Origin: a bacterium
Lineage (GTDB): Bacteria; Patescibacteriota; Minisyncoccia; Phycocordibacterales; UBA9973
DNA length: 61,113 nt
Assembly: GCA_021831595.1 (NCBI GenBank)
Contig: JAKBMK010000025.1
Span: 1-61,113, forward strand
Reading direction: 5' to 3'
Each line of letters opens with the position of its first letter. Within the stretch, counting starts at the first letter, position 1. The notes below the pieces were generated by a model, which worked only from the letters and a program-made list of their open reading frames with translations, was not told the DNA's origin and did not search any database. Positions 7,300 through 60,020 of the stretch are shown in pieces. A program made the position numbers and the translations under genes.

Positions 7300-7387
7300 A
7301 TTAGTGATTAGTGATTAGTGATTAGTGATTAGTGATTAGTGATTAGTGATTAGTGATTAGTGATTAGTGATTAGTGATTAGTGATTA
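7300..7387. repeat. Perfect heptamer tandem repeat (ATTAGTG), 12 full copies plus a partial
   Basis: Read directly from the sequence. Confidence 0.97.
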
Positions 7388-24987: not shown

Positions 24988-25674
24988 ATGTTGAGAAAAG
25001 ATCCATTTATTACTGGTGAGTACTATCATATATATAACAGAGGAATAGACAAAAGAAATATATTTAAACTAGAAAGAGATTATGAGAGATTCATGATGCT
25101 TTTGTATGTTTCTAATTCTACTAATGAAAATTCTTTACGATTAGATGATCTTTTAAATAAACAGCATAAAAGTTTTAAAGAAGTTTTGATTTTAGATAAA
25201 GGTAAGCCACTAGTTTCTATAGGTGCTTGGTGTCTTATGACCAACCATTTTCATTTATTAGTTAGGCAAGAGGTAGACGGAGGGATAACTAAATTTATGA
25301 GAAAAGTGGGGGTAGGGTATTCAATGTTTTTTAATATTAAATATCATAGGCAGGGAGCCTTGTTTGGGGGGCTCTTCAAATCTAAATTAATTGGTAAGAA
25401 TGATAATTATTTAAAAATGCTTTTGGCATATATTCATTTAAATTCACTTGAGATAAATTTCCCAGATTTAGAAAATAAAAAAGGGGAGTATAAAGAGGAT
25501 GAAATGAAAGAATTTTTGGATTCATATCGGTATTCTAGTTATAGGGATTATATGGGAATTAATAGAACAGAGAAGAGTATTTTAAACAGAGAATCTTTCC
25601 CGGAATATTTTCATACAGATCAATCCTTCATTGAATTTGTGGAGAATTTTTATCTTTATAAACAACAGCACTAA
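24988..25674 (+). CDS. REP-associated tyrosine transposase (RAYT-like Y1/HUH) #1
   Basis: YHIYNRG, WCLMTNHFHLL (HUH), YIHLN (catalytic Tyr) and YSSY. REPs flank it on both sides. Confidence 0.9.
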   Translation: MLRKDPFITGEYYHIYNRGIDKRNIFKLERDYERFMMLLYVSNSTNENSLRLDDLLNKQHKSFKEVLILDKGKPLVSIGAWCLMTNHFHLLVRQEVDGGITKFMRKVGVGYSMFFNIKYHRQGALFGGLFKSKLIGKNDNYLKMLLAYIHLNSLEINFPDLENKKGEYKEDEMKEFLDSYRYSSYRDYMGINRTEKSILNRESFPEYFHTDQSFIEFVENFYLYKQQH

Positions 25675-25890
25675 TCTTTCTAACCTTTCGCAAGAACCGT
25701 TCTTGCGACAAAAATCTTTCTAACCTTTCGCAAGAACCGTTCTTGCGACAAAGTTCTTGCGACAAATAAAAAGAAAAGGGCTCCTTAGGTAGTTAACCGT
25801 TCGGATCTCTCTTCGTATTGATATGGGTATTATATATCTTTGTGGTGCTACGGACTCGCAAGAACCGTTCTTGCGACAATCTTGCGACAA
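25673..25890. repeat. REP family A cluster downstream of RAYT-1
   Basis: A 40-bp tandem duplication (25673-25712 and 25713-25752) in which each unit contains TCGCAAGAACCGTTCTTGCGA, another copy at 25856-25876, and half copies. Confidence 0.9.
25768..25836 (-). ncRNA. Candidate small RNA, orphan copy of the NYN-linked motif
   Basis: Minus strand: TATAAT-N-ATATCAATACGAAGAGAGATCC...GGAGCCCTTTTCTTTTT, homologous to 29322-29391. Confidence 0.5.
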
Positions 25891-25940
25891 CAAAGGCAAG
25901 ACCTTTGCACGGACAGCAAATTGCAAAGGTCTTGCCTTTG
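25891..25940. repeat. REP doublet family B (left inverted copy)
   Basis: CAAAGG-CAAGA-CCTTTG ... CAAAGG-TCTTG-CCTTTG, the exact reverse complement of 27001-27050. Confidence 0.92.
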
Positions 25941-27000: not shown

Positions 27001-27050
27001 CAAAGGCAAGACCTTTGCAATTTGCTGTCCGTGCAAAGGTCTTGCCTTTG
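27001..27050. repeat. REP doublet family B (right inverted copy)
   Basis: Exact 50-bp reverse complement of 25891-25940. Confidence 0.92.
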
Positions 27051-27082
27051 TGGGTTATTCTATTTGTATCAAAAGCTTGCCT

Positions 27083-28187: not shown

Positions 28188-28254
28188 GAAATATAATTTG
28201 GCTAATAATACAACAGGCGGAGGCGTAAGCCTCCGCCTGTTGTATATGTATTTT

Positions 28255-28461
28255 CTAATGCGTAAAGATTATTATTATCGTCCTTAGTATTATCCCAAAG
28301 TCGATGAAGATATTTCTATTTTTTATATAATACAAATCATACTCAAATTTTTCTTTTGAGCTCTCGATCGTGTTTGCATAGCGGTACTTGATCTGGGCCC
28401 AGCCGGTGAATCCTGGGCGGATGATATGGCGGAGGTTGTAGTGGGGGATGGTCTCGGACAT
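28255..28461 (-). pseudogene. Duplicated 3' end of the sugar transferase gene
   Basis: The last 64 aa match those of 29421-30716 at all but one residue. Confidence 0.9.
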
Positions 28462-29391: not shown

Positions 29392-29420
29392 CCAACGTGA
29401 CACCAGTGTCAAGACTATTT

Positions 29421-30716
29421 CTAATGCGTAAAGATTATTATTATCGTTCGTAATATTATTCCGAAATCGATGAAGATATTTCTGTTCTTTATATAATATA
29501 AATCGTATTCAAACTTTTCTTTTGAATCTTCGATTGTATTTGCATAGCGGTATTTTATTTGAGCCCAGCCGGTGAATCCTGGGCGGATGATGTGGCGGAG
29601 ATTGTAGTGGGGGATCTTGCCTTCGAGAGGAGTGACGAATTCTGGGCGCTCTGGACGGGGACCGACGAGCGAAAGATCGCCACGGAGTATATTTATCATT
29701 TGCGGAATTTCGTCGATGTGGAGCTTGCGGATGACTCTGCCGACCCGAGTGACACGAGGGTCGGATGCTCCTGTGGCCCAGACGGCGCCATCCTTCTCGG
29801 CGTTTATCGTCATAGAGCGAAGCTTGTAAAGCCTGAATATATTGCCATTGAGTCCAACTCTATTTTGAGTATAGAAGATTGGACCTTTGTCGTTTAGATA
29901 TATGAACACTCCACTGACAAGCAATATAGGTGAGCAGAGTACTAGTATGATGATAGCGAACAACTTATTCACAATAAACGTCATTATATTGTAGGCGACG
30001 TCTTTCTTTATATTTATATTCTCTACAACGAAAGACATATCGATATACCCAACAGGAATTTTGAATAGATATTTCTCATAAGCTTTGGCTGTGTCGATGA
30101 TGGAGCATCCTTGCTTGTATAGTTCCAAAATCTTTTCGTCTGGAGAGTCTATTTTCTTGTCTAGGATTATCACCAAATTTTTTGTAATTTTCTCTACTGA
30201 CTTCATCTCATTCATACTGTCTAGATGACTTACGATCGAGAGCCCGATCTGAGGATTTGCTTTTATCGTATTCTCTAATTCTTTCAGATAAGTAGAAGTC
30301 CCGACGAGAATTACCGGCTGTGTTATGCCCTTGGCGAAAAGGGTATAGATAGTTCTACGAAAGAAGAAAGAAAAGAAACCGAACAGAACGACCTGGATCA
30401 AGAGGTTCATCTTTGGATAAATACCGAATATAGGGGCTAGGTAGAATAGGATCAAGCCGACGACGAAGGAGGAGGCCAGGGCTAGGGCCCATCTCTTCAT
30501 ATAGGGGATAGTAGGCTTTATCGTCACCAAGTCATATAGTCCAAATATATAGAAAATAAGCACCCAGATGAGATATAGGAGGAGGAATGGCACAGTATGA
30601 CTGTCGATAGCAGAAAGGTACTGGTCGGGAGAGAATCTTATGAAAATAAGCAATATAAAAGAGATGAGAAAAGATAGAAAATCTCCGAATATGATAAGCC
30701 AAGTTCTATTCGTCAT
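29421..30716 (-). CDS. Polyprenyl-phosphate sugar-1-phosphate transferase (WcaJ/WbaP-like)
   Basis: FRLYKLRSM, DPRVTRVGRVIRKLHIDEIPQ, SLVGPRPE and PGFTGWAQ. Confidence 0.95.
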   Translation of the reverse strand: MTNRTWLIIFGDFLSFLISFILLIFIRFSPDQYLSAIDSHTVPFLLLYLIWVLIFYIFGLYDLVTIKPTIPYMKRWALALASSFVVGLILFYLAPIFGIYPKMNLLIQVVLFGFFSFFFRRTIYTLFAKGITQPVILVGTSTYLKELENTIKANPQIGLSIVSHLDSMNEMKSVEKITKNLVIILDKKIDSPDEKILELYKQGCSIIDTAKAYEKYLFKIPVGYIDMSFVVENINIKKDVAYNIMTFIVNKLFAIIILVLCSPILLVSGVFIYLNDKGPIFYTQNRVGLNGNIFRLYKLRSMTINAEKDGAVWATGASDPRVTRVGRVIRKLHIDEIPQMINILRGDLSLVGPRPERPEFVTPLEGKIPHYNLRHIIRPGFTGWAQIKYRYANTIEDSKEKFEYDLYYIKNRNIFIDFGIILRTIIIIFTH

Positions 30717-56157: not shown

Positions 56158-57573
56158 ATGATTAAAAAAACAAAAATAGTAGCAACAATAGGCCCTGTGA
56201 CGACTTCCGTAGAAATGCTTTCGAAGCTCCTTAGGGCCGGGATGAATGTTGTTCGTCTAAATTTCTCACATGGTGATTTTGCTGAACACCAAGAGAAGGT
56301 AAACAATTTTAAGATTGCCATGAAAGAGACTGGTATAGGTGGTGCTATCTTGCAAGATCTTTCAGGTCCTAAAATCCGTTTGGGTGAGTTTTCTACAGAG
56401 AGAGTAGAACTTGTCGCTGGGAAGAATATAACTATTACTACCAAGAAAATAATTGGTAGTGAGAAAATTGTCTCAATTAATTATCTACCTTTTCCAAAAG
56501 AAGTTAAAAAGGGAGACAAAATAATGGTAGATGATGGTAAAAAGAAATTCGAAGTTTTAAATGTAAAAGGGGATGAAGTTCTTTGTAAGATTCTTATAGG
56601 CGGAGATACGAAAGGGCGTCGTGGAGTTAACCTCCCAGATTCTGACCTTTCTATTAAATCACTTACAGAAAAGGATAAAAAAGATATAGAATTTGGTATC
56701 AAGAATAATGTAGATTTCTTTGCTTTTTCTTTTGTTCGTACACATGAAGATGTGAAAGAACTACGAAGTATTTTAAATAAGAAAAAATCTAAAGCTAAAA
56801 TCATTGCCAAGATAGAGACACCACAAGCTGTTAATAACATTGATGCTATACTAGAGCTTTGTGATGGACTTATGGTTGCTCGTGGAGATTTGGCGATAGA
56901 AGTGCCAGCAGAAAAAGTTCCAATGATACAGAAAATGCTTATAAAGAAATGCAATGATGCTGGAAAGATTGTTATAACTGCTACTCAAATGCTCGAATCT
57001 ATGATAAAGAGCCCTGTGCCTACTCGCGCTGAAGTTTCAGATATTGCCAATGCGATACTTGATGGCACAGATGCTGTGATGCTTTCAGAAGAGACAACAC
57101 TAGGGAGTTACCCAGTTGAGGCTGTGAAGATGATGAGTAAGGTTGCCTATGATATTGAACACAACTACCCAGAAAGAAAAGTTATACCAGTAGTGGGTAG
57201 AGGGGAAAGATGTGTCACAGATTCTGTCACTGGATCTGTGGTCAAGATTGCTCACGACTTAGACGCGAAAATAATTATCGCATTGACGAAGACAGGGTAT
57301 ACAGCTCGTATGATTTCTCGTCATAAACCAGAATCTCCTATAATCGCTGTCACTTCAGATGTTATCACTTCGCATCAACTCAATCTTTCTTTTGGTTGCT
57401 TGCCAGTACTCATAGATTCATACAAAGAAATTCCGGAAGCGTTTAAAAATGTCAGAGAATATTGCCTAAAGAACAAGATAGTAAACAAGGGAGACAAAGT
57501 GGTGATAGTCGCTTGTTCTTCTACAGAAAAAAAGGATAATTCCGCAAATTCTATAACAGTAGAAACAGTATAG
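56158..57573 (+). CDS. pyk: Pyruvate kinase
   Basis: TKIVATIGP, RLNFSHG, IIAKIE, MVARGDL and ATQMLESM. Confidence 0.98.
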   Translation: MIKKTKIVATIGPVTTSVEMLSKLLRAGMNVVRLNFSHGDFAEHQEKVNNFKIAMKETGIGGAILQDLSGPKIRLGEFSTERVELVAGKNITITTKKIIGSEKIVSINYLPFPKEVKKGDKIMVDDGKKKFEVLNVKGDEVLCKILIGGDTKGRRGVNLPDSDLSIKSLTEKDKKDIEFGIKNNVDFFAFSFVRTHEDVKELRSILNKKKSKAKIIAKIETPQAVNNIDAILELCDGLMVARGDLAIEVPAEKVPMIQKMLIKKCNDAGKIVITATQMLESMIKSPVPTRAEVSDIANAILDGTDAVMLSEETTLGSYPVEAVKMMSKVAYDIEHNYPERKVIPVVGRGERCVTDSVTGSVVKIAHDLDAKIIIALTKTGYTARMISRHKPESPIIAVTSDVITSHQLNLSFGCLPVLIDSYKEIPEAFKNVREYCLKNKIVNKGDKVVIVACSSTEKKDNSANSITVETV

Positions 57574-57596: not shown

Positions 57597-58283
57597 ATGG
57601 CACACCAAGGCAATGCGTGGGATAGGGAATACAGGAATCCACTACTAGTGACTAAGAATGATGGTCCGCAAAAAGACACTTTGCGATTTTTGAAGTATCT
57701 GAAAAAAGTAGAGAAGTATAGAGTGGAAGAAAAGAATATTCTGGATCTTGGTTGTGGCACAGGCAGGAATTCAAATTATTTAGCAGATTTATACAATAAA
57801 GTTATTGGCATAGAAATATCAAAGACAGCCTTAGATATTGCGAAAACTCGCGCACACAACATGGGCGTGTCTGTAGACTATAGACTAGGGGATATAGGGG
57901 AGAAGTATGATATACCAGATAATTCTATCGATGTAGTACTAGATATCACATCTTCGAATTCTCTTGATGAAAAAGGAAGAGAAGTTTACTTGGAAGAGGT
58001 ACAGAGAGTAATGAAAAAAGGTGGGTACTTTTTTGTCCGGGCGCTTTGTAAAGACGGCAATCAGAATGTGAAGAATCTCCTCAAGATGAGCCCCGGCAAG
58101 GAATATGATACTTATATAATGAAAGATATAGGACTTACAGAGCGCGTATTCTCTAGGACTGATTTCTTGGCTATGTATGGCAAATATTTTAAAATTTTGA
58201 ATTTAGAAAAGAAAACAAGTTATACTACTTTCAATAATCGTATCTACAAACGCGATTACTGGCTCGCTTATATGCAGAAGTAG
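57597..58283 (+). CDS. Class I SAM-dependent methyltransferase
   Basis: ILDLGCGTGRN and IGIEIS. Confidence 0.9.
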   Translation: MAHQGNAWDREYRNPLLVTKNDGPQKDTLRFLKYLKKVEKYRVEEKNILDLGCGTGRNSNYLADLYNKVIGIEISKTALDIAKTRAHNMGVSVDYRLGDIGEKYDIPDNSIDVVLDITSSNSLDEKGREVYLEEVQRVMKKGGYFFVRALCKDGNQNVKNLLKMSPGKEYDTYIMKDIGLTERVFSRTDFLAMYGKYFKILNLEKKTSYTTFNNRIYKRDYWLAYMQK

Positions 58284-58290
58284 TATGAGT

Positions 58291-58323
58291 AAAACAGAGT
58301 AAGGCAAGACCTTACTCTGTTTT
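58291..58323. repeat. REP family D
   Basis: AAAACAGAGTAAGG-CAAGA-CCTTACTCTGTTTT. Confidence 0.92.
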
Positions 58324-59183
58324 TGTTTTGTAGTTTTGTATGAAAATACCTACAAATATAAACAATAGTCCAATAATAGAAGATATTAAAATGGTTTCGT
58401 GGAGCAGGAAATATATATAAACAAGAGAGAAGAATGGGGTTAAGAAAGCAATGTTTGCTATTTTTGCTGTATCTCCATATTTGAGAGCAAGAAACCATAA
58501 AAGAAAAGCTCCTCCACTCGTAAATATTCCAGTCCAAATAAGGCCTAGGATTTGCATCCCCTCAATTTTAGGAATAAAACTAAATGAAGTTACTGCTATC
58601 AATGTAAAAATAAAAGTAAATAAATAGTAAAAAAACATACTGGTCGTCTTGTCGTAATTTTGTCTTTTTCCTAGAACAGAGAATAATCCATATGACATAG
58701 CCGCTATAATTGCGAATATTACACCAATAGGTTTTTCAAAATGTAGTTGTTGCAGATTGCCTTGGGTTGCAATAATTATGACTCCTATAAAAGAAAAAAT
58801 AACAGCCAGTATTTTTTTATAAGTAAATTTTTCTCCCAATATTGGAATAGCAAATAAAACTATCATAATGGGCCATAAATAGTTAATAACGAAAGCTTCT
58901 TGAGCCTTTAGATAAGAGATGGCTATATATAAAAATAGATAATAAATAAAAACACCCACGAATCCCATATAAATAAAACGCCAATAATCTTTTAATCCAT
59001 AGGATTTTATTATCGAGATTTTTTCTGTATTAAAACAATTATGAATAAACTTAGTGATGCGAAAAATGAAGCGAAAAGTAAAATTTGTAGACTATTTAAA
59101 TTTTTTAATAACAGTTTTACTACTGCGGCAGTAGATCCCCATAAAAGGGTAGCTGACAGTGCATATATGTATGCTTTGTTCAT
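58312..59183 (-). pseudogene. EamA/DMT transporter split by a 1-nt frameshift
   Basis: N-part MNKAYIYALSATLLWGST (59183) and C-part MGFVG...INYLWP. They join in frame if one base is added to the T6 run at 59019-59024. Confidence 0.85.
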
Positions 59184-59217
59184 GATGTAGATTATAACAT
59201 AGAATGTTTTCAATATA

Positions 59218-59244
59218 ACAGAGTAAGGTCTTGCCTTACTCTGT
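59218..59244. repeat. REP family D (opposite orientation)
   Basis: ACAGAGTAAGG-TCTTG-CCTTACTCTGT. Confidence 0.92.
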
Positions 59245-59265
59245 CGGAGGAATATAATGTAATAT

Positions 59266-59931
59266 ATGTCTTTAAGAAAAGTTAATTTTGTAAAAGGAGA
59301 ATATTATCACATTTATAATCGCGGAAATAGTAAACAGAAAATATTTCATGATAAATATGATTATTTTCATTTTGTGAAATTAATGTTTATTTGCAACAAT
59401 ATAGATAATGTAAGAATTTTTAATGATGATCGGTATGGCATTAATGTATTTGATAGAGAGGTAGAGAATATTGTATCTATTGGAGCATATTGTTTAATGC
59501 CGAATCACTTTCATATATTAATTACAGAAAAAATGGAAAGTGGCATAAGTAAGTTTATGCAAAAATTATCAACTGCGTATTCTATGTATTACAATAAAAA
59601 ACATAATCACACGGGTGGATTATTTGAAGGGAAGTTTAAGTCTGTGCATATTGATGGAGATATTCAGATGAAATATTTGTTTTCGTATATTCATTTGAAT
59701 CCAATAAAACTAATATATAAAGATTGGAAAGAATTTGGTATCAAAGATAAAAAACAAGCATTAGATTATCTAGGGGAATATGATTATTCTAGTTATAAAG
59801 ATTTTATATTAAATGAAAGAATACAAAGTAAAATACTAAATATTAAAGATTTTCCCAATTATTTTCATATTAAAGAAAAGTTTCAGAAAGAGATAATTGA
59901 ATGGTTGTCTTTTAAAGACAAAACAGAGTAA
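59266..59931 (+). CDS. REP-associated tyrosine transposase (RAYT-like Y1/HUH) #2
   Basis: YHIYNRG, YCLMPNHFHIL, YIHLNP and YSSY. Inverted family D REPs flank it. Confidence 0.92.
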   Translation: MSLRKVNFVKGEYYHIYNRGNSKQKIFHDKYDYFHFVKLMFICNNIDNVRIFNDDRYGINVFDREVENIVSIGAYCLMPNHFHILITEKMESGISKFMQKLSTAYSMYYNKKHNHTGGLFEGKFKSVHIDGDIQMKYLFSYIHLNPIKLIYKDWKEFGIKDKKQALDYLGEYDYSSYKDFILNERIQSKILNIKDFPNYFHIKEKFQKEIIEWLSFKDKTE

Positions 59932-59951
59932 GGCAAGACCTTACTCTGTTT
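59921..59951. repeat. REP family D
   Basis: AAACAGAGTAAGG-CAAGA-CCTTACTCTGTTT, which contains the RAYT stop codon. Confidence 0.92.
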
Positions 59952-59956
59952 ATAAC

Positions 59957-60000
59957 CGTATCTACAAACGCGATTACTGGCTCGCTTATATGCAGAAGTA
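59957..60000 (+). repeat. 44-bp exact direct repeat of the methyltransferase 3' end (58239-58282)
   Basis: CGTATCTACAAACGCGATTACTGGCTCGCTTATATGCAGAAGTA occurs at both sites. Confidence 0.95.
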
Positions 60001-60020
60001 AATTATGCTAATATAAGTAT

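Follow-up and report, generated by a model that had tools for sequence, protein, structure and literature searches.

The DNA examined here (the window) spans 61,113 bases at the start of the 177,859-base contig JAKBMK010000025.1, in an assembly from the patescibacterial lineage UBA9973 (GCA_021831595.1, here called G000; 807,126 bases in 33 contigs, 95% complete by markers). Near its right end, between a gene for an S-adenosylmethionine (SAM)-dependent methyltransferase (MT) and murI, the gene for glutamate racemase, lies a small islet: an EamA transporter gene on the minus strand and a gene resembling those of the REP-associated tyrosine transposases (RAYTs), separated and enclosed by three repetitive extragenic palindromes (REPs). 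The G+C content is 27.9% in the islet, 37.4% in MT and 35.8% in murI. A sequence-only reading of the window had described this order, REP–EamA–REP–RAYT–REP, set between two copies of the MT 3′ end, and we confirm it with one correction, namely that EamA is split by a frameshift (Table 1). Below, handles of the form G0xx denote same-genus relatives, Lxxx RAYT loci, and X1, X8, X10 and X11 sequencing runs.

Table 1. Features of the MT–murI region, in window coordinates (aa, amino acids; nt, nucleotides).
Feature	Position	Strand	Basis or remark
Pyruvate-kinase-like gene (PK)	56158..57573	+	open reading frame; name from sequence reading only; 5′ of MT
SAM-dependent methyltransferase gene (MT), 228 aa, stop TAG	57597..58283	+	Pfam Methyltransf_25/11/31
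Repeat copy 1, working last 16 codons of MT	58234..58282	+	followed by G (giving TAG), 7 nt and REP1
REP1, 14-bp stem, loop CAAGA	58291..58323	.	carries the EamA stop; terminator-like, 3′ of MT
EamA/DMT transporter gene, frameshifted	58312..59213	-	Pfam EamA on both pieces
T6 run at the EamA frame break	59019..59024	.	comparison with run contigs, and frame arithmetic
REP2, REP1 stem with inverted loop TCTTG	59215..59246	.	33 nt 5′ of the EamA ATG and just 5′ of RAYT
Promoter-like site TTGCCT-16 nt-TATAAT, 10/12 consensus matches	59231..59258	+	best of the region
RAYT-like Y1 (HUH) transposase gene, 221 aa	59266..59931	+	Pfam Y1_Tnp; stop inside REP3
REP3, 32-nt perfect direct copy of REP1	59920..59951	.	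foot abuts repeat copy 2
Repeat copy 2, displaced non-functional MT 3′ remnant, ancestral TAA stop	59952..60001	+	colinear with relatives' empty junctions
murI leader ATTATGCTAATATAAGTAT, 19 nt	60002..60020	+	homologous to the TGCTATAAT-containing leader 3′ of MT in relatives with an empty junction
murI (glutamate racemase), 260 aa	60021..60803	+	NCBIfam TIGR00067, 111 bits, under the cut-off of 146.65; orthologues found

What brackets the islet is a 49-nt direct repeat of the MT end (58234–58282 and 59952–60000) with a single mismatch, a T/C difference that leaves both codons specifying asparagine (AAT/AAC). Its exact core of 44 nt (58239–58282 and 59957–60000), the second copy of which begins 5 nt past REP3, occurs at these two sites only in the whole assembly; by our arithmetic, the chance of an exact repeat of that length in 61 kb is about 1e-17. 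The repeat, with its exact core, its synonymous mismatch and its spacing from the REP, had been noticed in the sequence-only reading, and its coordinates hold. The copy beside the inserted block closes the MT frame, while the displaced copy retains the ancestral TAA and the murI leader.

We compared MT in 19 same-genus relatives and murI in 29. Nine species (G003, G021, G022, G004, G005, G058, G042, G061 and G078) have an empty junction, in which no more than 35 nt separate the MT stop from the murI ATG and the MT end is present once; the spacer in all nine is a short leader with TGCTATAAT, and copy 2 of the window, followed by TAA and ATTATGCTAATATAAGTAT, aligns there. By eye, the MT end of G048 also lies directly before murI, with 46 of 49 nt matching. 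A degenerate 27-nt probe for the MT end, run against 93 genomes, found two matches in G000 alone and one in each of 67 others. MT itself is present in 23 of 41 genomes sampled (relatives and G000), and the order PK–MT–murI is common to G069, G080, G082, G058 and G078 (tblastn synteny). Taken together, the empty junctions and the alignment of copy 2 indicate that the block 58283–59951 was added at the MT–murI junction and that the right-hand copy is the displaced original: the 1.67-kb block is a true insertion between MT and murI. The sequence-only reading had suggested looking for just such relatives, and had held that its case would fall if no empty allele existed or if the repeat were an artefact of assembly; empty junctions do exist, and an artefact is unlikely for reasons given below.

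The same junction is occupied differently elsewhere in the genus. REP–RAYT–REP units of differing lineages lie between MT and murI in G047, G083 and G064 (three of the 15 junctions read) and, split over two contigs, in G077; a RAYT gene also stands 3′ of MT in G014 and G017. In G041 (L148, G041:C1 508–1504) the junction holds a gene for a 254-aa protein of no Pfam family with a likely signal peptide, and after it a solo hairpin identical to the islet REP. Three sister pairs in a MurI tree—a single-gene tree of moderate support—differ in state: G058 (empty) and G077 (RAYT; support 100/99), G080 (hairpin) and G047 (RAYT; 98/92), and G021 (empty) and G041 (100/99). The MT–murI junction is thus a hot spot of rapid turnover, its state differing between sister species. 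The MurI tree places G000 with G080 and G047 (87/89) and not beside G069, the one other genome that carries the islet's cargo.

EamA occurs in two of 93 genus genomes, G000 and G069, in both cases at the MT–murI junction. In the window it is broken into pieces of 67 aa (59213–59010), with a likely ATG at 59183, and 218 aa (58968–58312), and the REP1 arm takes the place of its final codons, as the intact 293-aa copy of G069 shows. The frame is broken at a run of six T in both the window and run X1; contigs of X8 and X11, which come from other studies, have one extra T, which by frame arithmetic would yield a single open frame colinear with the G069 homologue, so the cargo is intact in some populations and broken in others. 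In G069 the order is PK, MT, REP, RAYT (+), REP, EamA (−, intact), REP, murI; the two islet genes are permuted relative to G000, with their orientations kept. No long MT repeat is present at the G069 islet. Instead, the interval from the last REP to the murI leader contains a 15-nt MT-end remnant, TATCTGACTAAATAA, which exactly matches the working MT end of G020 (L012), G064 (L145) and G042 (L137), and G069's own working end, TATCTCCAAAAGTAA, is of the other type (...CAA AAG TAA).

Amino-acid identity between G000 and G069 is 85.3% for PK, 82.0% for MT, 84.6% for MurI and 75–80% for EamA, and 64.1% for the two islet RAYTs. The closer match to the G069 islet RAYT in G000 lies elsewhere, on contig C20 (85.8% identity, same hairpin family), in a unit that adjoins a TatD-like gene at a site empty in five of five relatives checked, G069 included. 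Since EamA stands in G069 beside a different RAYT lineage at the same junction, it is tied to the locus and not to one RAYT lineage; and since the C20 and G069 RAYTs occupy different loci, REP–RAYT–REP units must move or turn over. The suggestion in the sequence-only reading that this RAYT travels with cargo stands only in part: blocks of a RAYT and one gene with duplicated ends do recur, as described below, but EamA follows the locus, and the G069 RAYT is only 64% identical.

Short MT remnants at the murI leader are not confined to G069. Set against the working end of the same genome, they match at 16 of 18 positions in G083, 13 of 15 in G064, 10 of 15 in G069 and, read by eye, about 14 of 17 in G077; none was seen at the G047 junction. 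We considered whether the remnants are kept because the murI promoter needs the MT end, and dropped the idea: the leader has a TG-extended −10-like box, no promoter is predicted across copy 2, and the G077 remnant looks decayed. Nor do we count a shared target motif as shown, the remnants beginning near TATCT in five genomes at varying distance. In G048, MT is split over the end of contig C45 (L174) and the start of C71 (L132), with a 7-nt overlap and an internal stop; the contig break falls 2 nt away from position 58234, where the G000 repeat has its left border, by coincidence or perhaps through variable insertion in the population.

For eight coding repeat pairs, drawn from the MT site and from other RAYT loci with the same layout, we read the stranded copy in the working gene's frame and compared its codons with those of the working copy. 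In all, 16 of 19 differing codons are silent, where 22% would be expected from random single changes (P ~2e-8); a model of duplication followed by decay, in which the remnant decays freely and the working copy admits silent changes only, raises the expectation to 38% (P ~5e-5, our own estimate). By pair, silent and non-silent differences number 2 and 0 in G000, 2 and 0 in G083, 0 and 1 in G064, 2 and 1 in G069, 4 and 0 at L068 (plus one whole codon differing before the stop), 4 and 0 at L212, 1 and 0 at L273, and 1 and 1 at L030. At L212 and L273, the two loci tested after the hypothesis had been formed, all five differences are silent; G077, read by eye outside the script, has two silent and one non-silent. 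Such an excess implies that the stranded and working copies diverged while both were functional gene ends, and hence in two genomes. On this indirect evidence, the copies resemble alleles that come from two related genomes and not the scar of a transposase.

The layout seen in G000 recurs elsewhere. A scan for non-hairpin direct repeats spanning RAYT genes covered 29 + 60 loci of the genus and a further 35 from metagenomes, with flanks of 1 kb or longer on both sides; a full gene, cargo, a REP–RAYT–REP unit and a gene-end remnant near a REP were found together at 8 of these 124 other loci. The repeated sequence is the promoter and 5′ end of a priA-like gene at L030 (G052; 121 nt, 96.7% identity, cargo orf135), an SMC-like 3′ end at L068 (G052; 49 nt, 92%, orf125), an intergenic stretch 3′ of rplB at L097 (G083; 55 nt, 94.5%, the peptidase-like orf228), a terminator plus REP at L062 (G058; 134 nt, orf114), an H+-PPase 3′ end at L212 (39 nt, 92%, orf78) and an M50 peptidase 3′ end at L273 (76 nt, 98.7%, orf197); L272 is a scan hit only (40 nt, 90%). 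At L061 (G081) the repeats, of 37 nt and 46 nt, are the flanks of two different prolyl-tRNA synthetase (ProRS) genes with the RAYT gene between them. Three loci were set aside: L078 and L088, whose repeats prove to be paralogous genes that have diverged, and L281, a hairpin-like repeat. A distance of 0 to about 26 nt separates the non-functional copy from a REP arm in nine of nine cases read by eye (G000, G069, G083, G064, L030, L068, L097, L212 and L273). Simple units behave otherwise: for 63 REP–RAYT–REP units with a recognisable hairpin pair, the best direct match between the outer 70-nt flanks follows the distribution of mismatched-locus controls, and a general target duplication at RAYT units was accordingly rejected.

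At L061 (G081:C39 2712–6329) the adjacent ProRS genes encode proteins of 479 aa, with a ProRS-C_1 domain, and 419 aa, without it, and each gene is bracketed by the same two sequences, so that the locus looks like a gene replacement caught half-way.

The islet's transposase-like gene belongs to a numerous class in these genomes. Its product matches Pfam PF01797 (Y1_Tnp) over residues 70–143 with 37.6 bits, against a cut-off of 23 (39.9 bits in the genome search), and falls below the cut-off of NCBIfam REP_Tyr_transpos, NF047646 (44.5 against 80 bits), as does its C20 paralogue (49.4 bits). The translation contains the stretches PNHFHIL and SYIHLNP, putatively the HUH and catalytic tyrosine motifs. 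G000 has five RAYT-like genes, each flanked by hairpins of its own family, with three hairpins for the islet family and 2–9 for each of the other four (two mismatches or fewer). Across the genus, 74 of 93 genomes, G000 included, have 1–9 such genes, and relatives range from 0 to 9 per genome of 0.4–1.0 Mb. The closest relative of the islet RAYT is 67% identical in the genus and 61% within G000 (contig C20). A recognisable hairpin pair flanks 65 of 98 related RAYT loci, the relatives' hairpins having in common the apex GG-CAAGA-CC or its complement, with stems that vary.

The islet hairpin, CAGAGTAAGG-N5-CCTTACTCTG, has three copies in the window, against none in 100 shuffles; the genome as a whole likewise has three, all within the islet, even when up to two mismatches are allowed. 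REP1 and REP3 are direct copies on the same strand, and REP2 and REP3 are inverted, with 100% complementarity over 28 nt. As the sequence-only reading had stated, EamA and RAYT both finish in ...KTE*, encoded by the REP arm AAAACAGAGTAA: the stop of EamA (58312–58314) lies in the right arm of REP1 on the minus strand and that of RAYT (59929–59931) in the left arm of REP3. A stop codon within the downstream hairpin was found in 30 of 98 RAYT genes examined. The promoter-like site 5′ of RAYT draws its first hexamer, TTGCCT, from the REP2 apex and ends 7 nt 5′ of the RAYT ATG; it is a consensus match only, and the number of such sites in the region is not above that in shuffles. The apex TCTTGCC, which is conserved 5′ of the relatives' RAYT genes, may be maintained for driving RAYT transcription.

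REPs of the islet's type also occur, solo or paired (one or two per genome), in 6 of 92 other genomes, where no close RAYT accompanies them. In addition, a 769-nt contig of X1 (depth 9) matches the window only in 36 nt at REP1, and the flanks of this match are unrelated in X1, X8 and X10 (loose ends at 58294 and 58329); three runs with this pattern indicate that another co-occurring genome or locus carries an islet-type REP.

We propose that the block moved between related genomes by recombination in which homology joined one side and a non-homologous joint, placed at a REP foot, the other, a reading to which we give an even chance of being right. Islet-bearing and islet-free versions of the same chromosomal region would have recombined: on one side through pairing by homology in a conserved flanking gene, on the other through a non-homologous join at the REP3 foot, where ATAA is shared and the resident stop is 49 nt further on. 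The right-hand 49 nt would then be the resident MT end, stranded at the murI leader, and the left-hand copy would have come with the block, or the assignment may be the reverse. The REP hairpin would most likely set the non-homologous end, either as a cut site for the RAYT nuclease or as a barrier to end degradation; a hairpin that defines the end of the block would make REPs markers of mosaic seams. The islet may have entered an empty genome, or an empty-type murI side an islet genome; the incoming DNA may have been a linear fragment or a circle carrying 49 nt of MT, and the RAYT may have had a catalytic role. Such recombination accounts for the empty sites, for the allelic nature of the repeat and its variable length (15–134 nt), for the rarity of the cargo (2 of 93 genomes for EamA, 1 of 93 for orf125) and the confinement of EamA to one locus, and for the lack of duplications at most RAYT units. 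Shared bases at the joints, which may be fortuitous, are ATAA at REP3, TATCT in G069 and CTG at L273.

Several results weigh against this proposal. No donor lineage was found, the best RAYT match being 67% identical in the genus and 64% among 599 metagenome-contig relatives, and an exact scan of metagenome contigs returned no match to the 44-mer. A sliding-window mosaic test of MT against 17 relatives was flat; all relatives are 71–77% identical in MT, which gives the test low power. The remnants of 15–18 nt in G083, G064, G069 and G077 begin near the same TTATCT, a shared start that random non-homologous joints do not predict and that a site-specific event or selection would fit. Taken by itself, the MT site has 6 of 8 differences silent (8 of 11 with G077), which is not significant, and the pooled test is partly post hoc, its cases coming from one lineage and having been collected by the same analysis. 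Finally, orf125, the cargo at L068, is present in 0 of 92 other genus genomes, so that none was found in which it is an ordinary neighbour of the host gene, and the prediction that there should be one was unmet.

A bolder form of the proposal gives the RAYT an active part. REP–RAYT units would be one-ended mobilisers, in which the RAYT cuts at the REP foot and joins it to single-stranded DNA of the homologous region in a related genome; the far end would be resolved by homologous pairing in a conserved gene, the intervening gene would be carried along, and the allelic gene end would be left stranded at the REP foot. We offer this tentatively, as a model more apt to be wrong than right.

Of the other explanations, an integrating circle is the nearest to what the sequence-only reading proposed, namely an att-like integration that restores the target gene. 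The insertion itself, and the completion of MT by the copy beside the block, bear that proposal out. The att-like part does not hold up as well: the islet encodes no integrase, the silent differences fit alleles, and every such locus repeats a host sequence of its own, which is hence not an att site belonging to an element. A circle might nonetheless have formed from REP1–EamA–REP2–RAYT–REP3 plus 49 nt of MT end, imprecisely excised from the same junction in an earlier host, and then entered by a single crossover within the 44-nt identity, whether by host recombination or by IS608-like cutting and joining by the RAYT. Direct repeats bracketing the block and the existence of empty sites agree with this, and the allelic, mostly silent differences fit it as well as they fit a linear route; yet homologous integration would ordinarily call for more than 44–49 nt. 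We retain the circle as an unlikely but real contender because REP1 and REP3, perfect 32-nt copies in direct orientation on one strand, are like IS608-type ends, and because the G069 order is a circular permutation of that in G000 with orientations kept. In G069, though, the remnant and the working end share just 5 nt in a row, so that a crossover within the remnant is impossible, and the islets of G000 and G069, with RAYTs of separate lineages (64%), are not one permuted element. Read depth in X1 is 28.6 over the islet compared with 34.2 and 35 over its flanks, and is also lower in X8, not in X10 or X11; the lower depth in X1 and X8 is no evidence for or against an empty allele or a circle. 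Neither a circle nor an excision product was seen in the short contigs of the runs, in which the 44-nt repeat hides both forms from 31-letter words.

Transposition by the RAYT of a REP-bounded composite, with a long and variable target-site duplication made by staggered strand transfers, would explain why the copies are identical at 48 of 49 positions, as in a fresh duplication, and why the duplicated stretch stops exactly at the insert on both sides; repeats of 15–19 nt also flank simple RAYT units at the same site and start motif in G083, G064 and G077, and the silent excess at the MT site is not significant alone. Y1 transposases (IS200/IS605) are, however, not known to make target duplications, and we consider this route improbable: flank matches at the 63 units equal those of mismatched-pair controls, 16 of 19 silent differences are hard to obtain by duplication and decay, the working and remnant ends of G069 differ by a three-base codon change with both forms working elsewhere, and EamA accompanies a RAYT only at this one locus. 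Quite improbable, too, is that EamA is old and vertically inherited at the junction with many losses, the 49-nt repeat having come from aborted repair or template switching at a break at REP3 on an islet-free template. EamA identity between G000 and G069 is little under that of the flanking genes (82–85%), repeat-flanked blocks can be precisely lost, and a REP lies at a similar distance 5′ of the EamA start in both (33 nt in G000, 37 nt in G069). Nevertheless, the EamA-free G080, G047, G048, G082, G058 and G077 are nearer to G000 than G069 is in the MurI tree, with the caveat that it is one gene with moderate support, and the repeat is much younger than the G000–G069 split, with 1 difference in 49 as against about 10 in 50 between the MT ends of the two species. 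An islet-free template is still required, so this account merges with the recombination that we favour. That a mis-join in a metagenome-assembled genome made the repeat or the block is barely credible, for all that the assembly is in 33 contigs with overlapping ends. Those overlaps, of 126–127 nt, suggest an assembly word well above the length of the 44-nt repeat; short contigs of X1, which may be the window's own source and hence not independent, span both inner joints (58253–58320 and 59922–59986); runs from three studies hold the islet sequence with few base differences; and both islet genes recur at this junction in G069.

Other repeats in the window and assembly are recorded here as observations. 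Two pairs of repeats of about 30 nt, 28252–28281 with 29418–29447 and 28397–28425 with 29563–29591, lie 1166 nt apart and adjoin hairpins GATGCGCAAGGAC-GTCCTTGCGCATC (28537 and 28682); they may represent another REP-associated duplication. Just 3′ of another RAYT gene (25204–25437), inverted 51-nt copies with paired CAAAGGCAAGACCTTTG hairpins (25890–25940 and 27001–27051) enclose about 1.1 kb. About 12 tandem copies of the 7-nt ATTAGTG occupy 7300–7387. Many G000 contigs share identical ends of 126–127 nt, which as assembler overlaps would make several contigs joinable, and C13 with C19 and C15 with C26 share long near-identical stretches, perhaps strain variants or repeats.

Published accounts portray RAYT/REP systems as domesticated and single-copy, with units that do not move; in these genomes they are numerous and shift between sister species, and RAYT-like genes repeatedly border species-specific genes whose insertion left behind an allelic end of the neighbouring gene. 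If the REP foot is an active joining site, REP/RAYT systems would be linked to gene flow, and a gene-end remnant at a REP foot that differs only silently from the working end would be a signature of recent transfer in genomes from metagenomes. Were REP–RAYT units one-ended mobilisers, they would provide an unreported route by which a Y1 HUH enzyme spreads accessory genes, with REPs as the seams of a cassette system. Even conservatively read, the locus is a clear example of the entry of an accessory gene into a very compact genome with its tightly packed neighbours undamaged.

A literature search for RAYTs in Patescibacteria found nothing beyond incidental matches in work on primer coverage. 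In those portions of the literature that were available, we found no description of numerous RAYT-like units differing between sister species, of a hot spot for them at a two-gene junction, or of the recurrent pairing of a cargo gene with an allelic gene-end remnant next to a REP foot. REPtrons are described as having, as a rule, a single gene for each REP type and numerous REPs dispersed through the genome, and as not transposing as units (PMC3333891, PMC6006769); RAYT groups 2 and 3 are described as vertically inherited (PMC5581495). The Escherichia coli RAYT enzyme cleaves and recombines REP DNA in vitro, and the word 'duplication' is absent from that account (PMC3333891). Like the REPtrons of E. 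coli and Pseudomonas, the islet places a Y1 HUH gene between inverted copies of its own hairpin. It departs from them, as so described, in having 2–9 hairpins per family, 0–9 genes per genome and a protein under the NCBIfam equivalog cut-off, and in that sister species differ in occupancy and one unit stands at different loci in G000 and G069.

With IS200/IS605 elements of the IS608 type the islet shares a Y1 transposase, hairpin ends, and simple units that lack a target duplication. The arrangement of the ends points both ways: the hairpins flanking the islet RAYT are inverted copies of one sequence and not distinct left and right ends, while the islet as a whole is bounded by REP1 and REP3 in direct orientation on one strand. 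G000 has no near-identical copies of the gene (the best pair with the islet RAYT being 61% identical). Islands that integrate at 3′ ends through att sites likewise leave direct repeats of a gene's 3′ end, an intact gene and empty sites with one copy; the islet differs in having no tyrosine or serine recombinase (Pfam and open reading frames give only EamA and Y1_Tnp) and in a repeat that varies by locus, the same cargo in G069 being accompanied by the 15-nt remnant with 10 of 15 positions identical.

A comparable process in natural transformation is homology-facilitated illegitimate recombination, in which one end of the incoming DNA is homologous and the other is joined at a few shared bases. 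The resemblance would extend to the addition of foreign DNA, the two allelic overlap copies that remain, and perhaps the ATAA at the joint. A joint within about 26 nt of a REP arm, as in the nine cases here, is not a known feature of it. IS91 and ISCR elements encode Y2 rolling-circle enzymes and move to unrelated sites; in them, too, the end recognised by an HUH enzyme forms one border of a block with adjacent host genes, the other border being variable, whereas the blocks described here remain at the homologous locus. Taken singly, the components are all familiar: the Y1 gene is REPtron-like, REP hairpins and DMT transporters are established types, and the proposed recombination, illegitimate at one end, has precedents.

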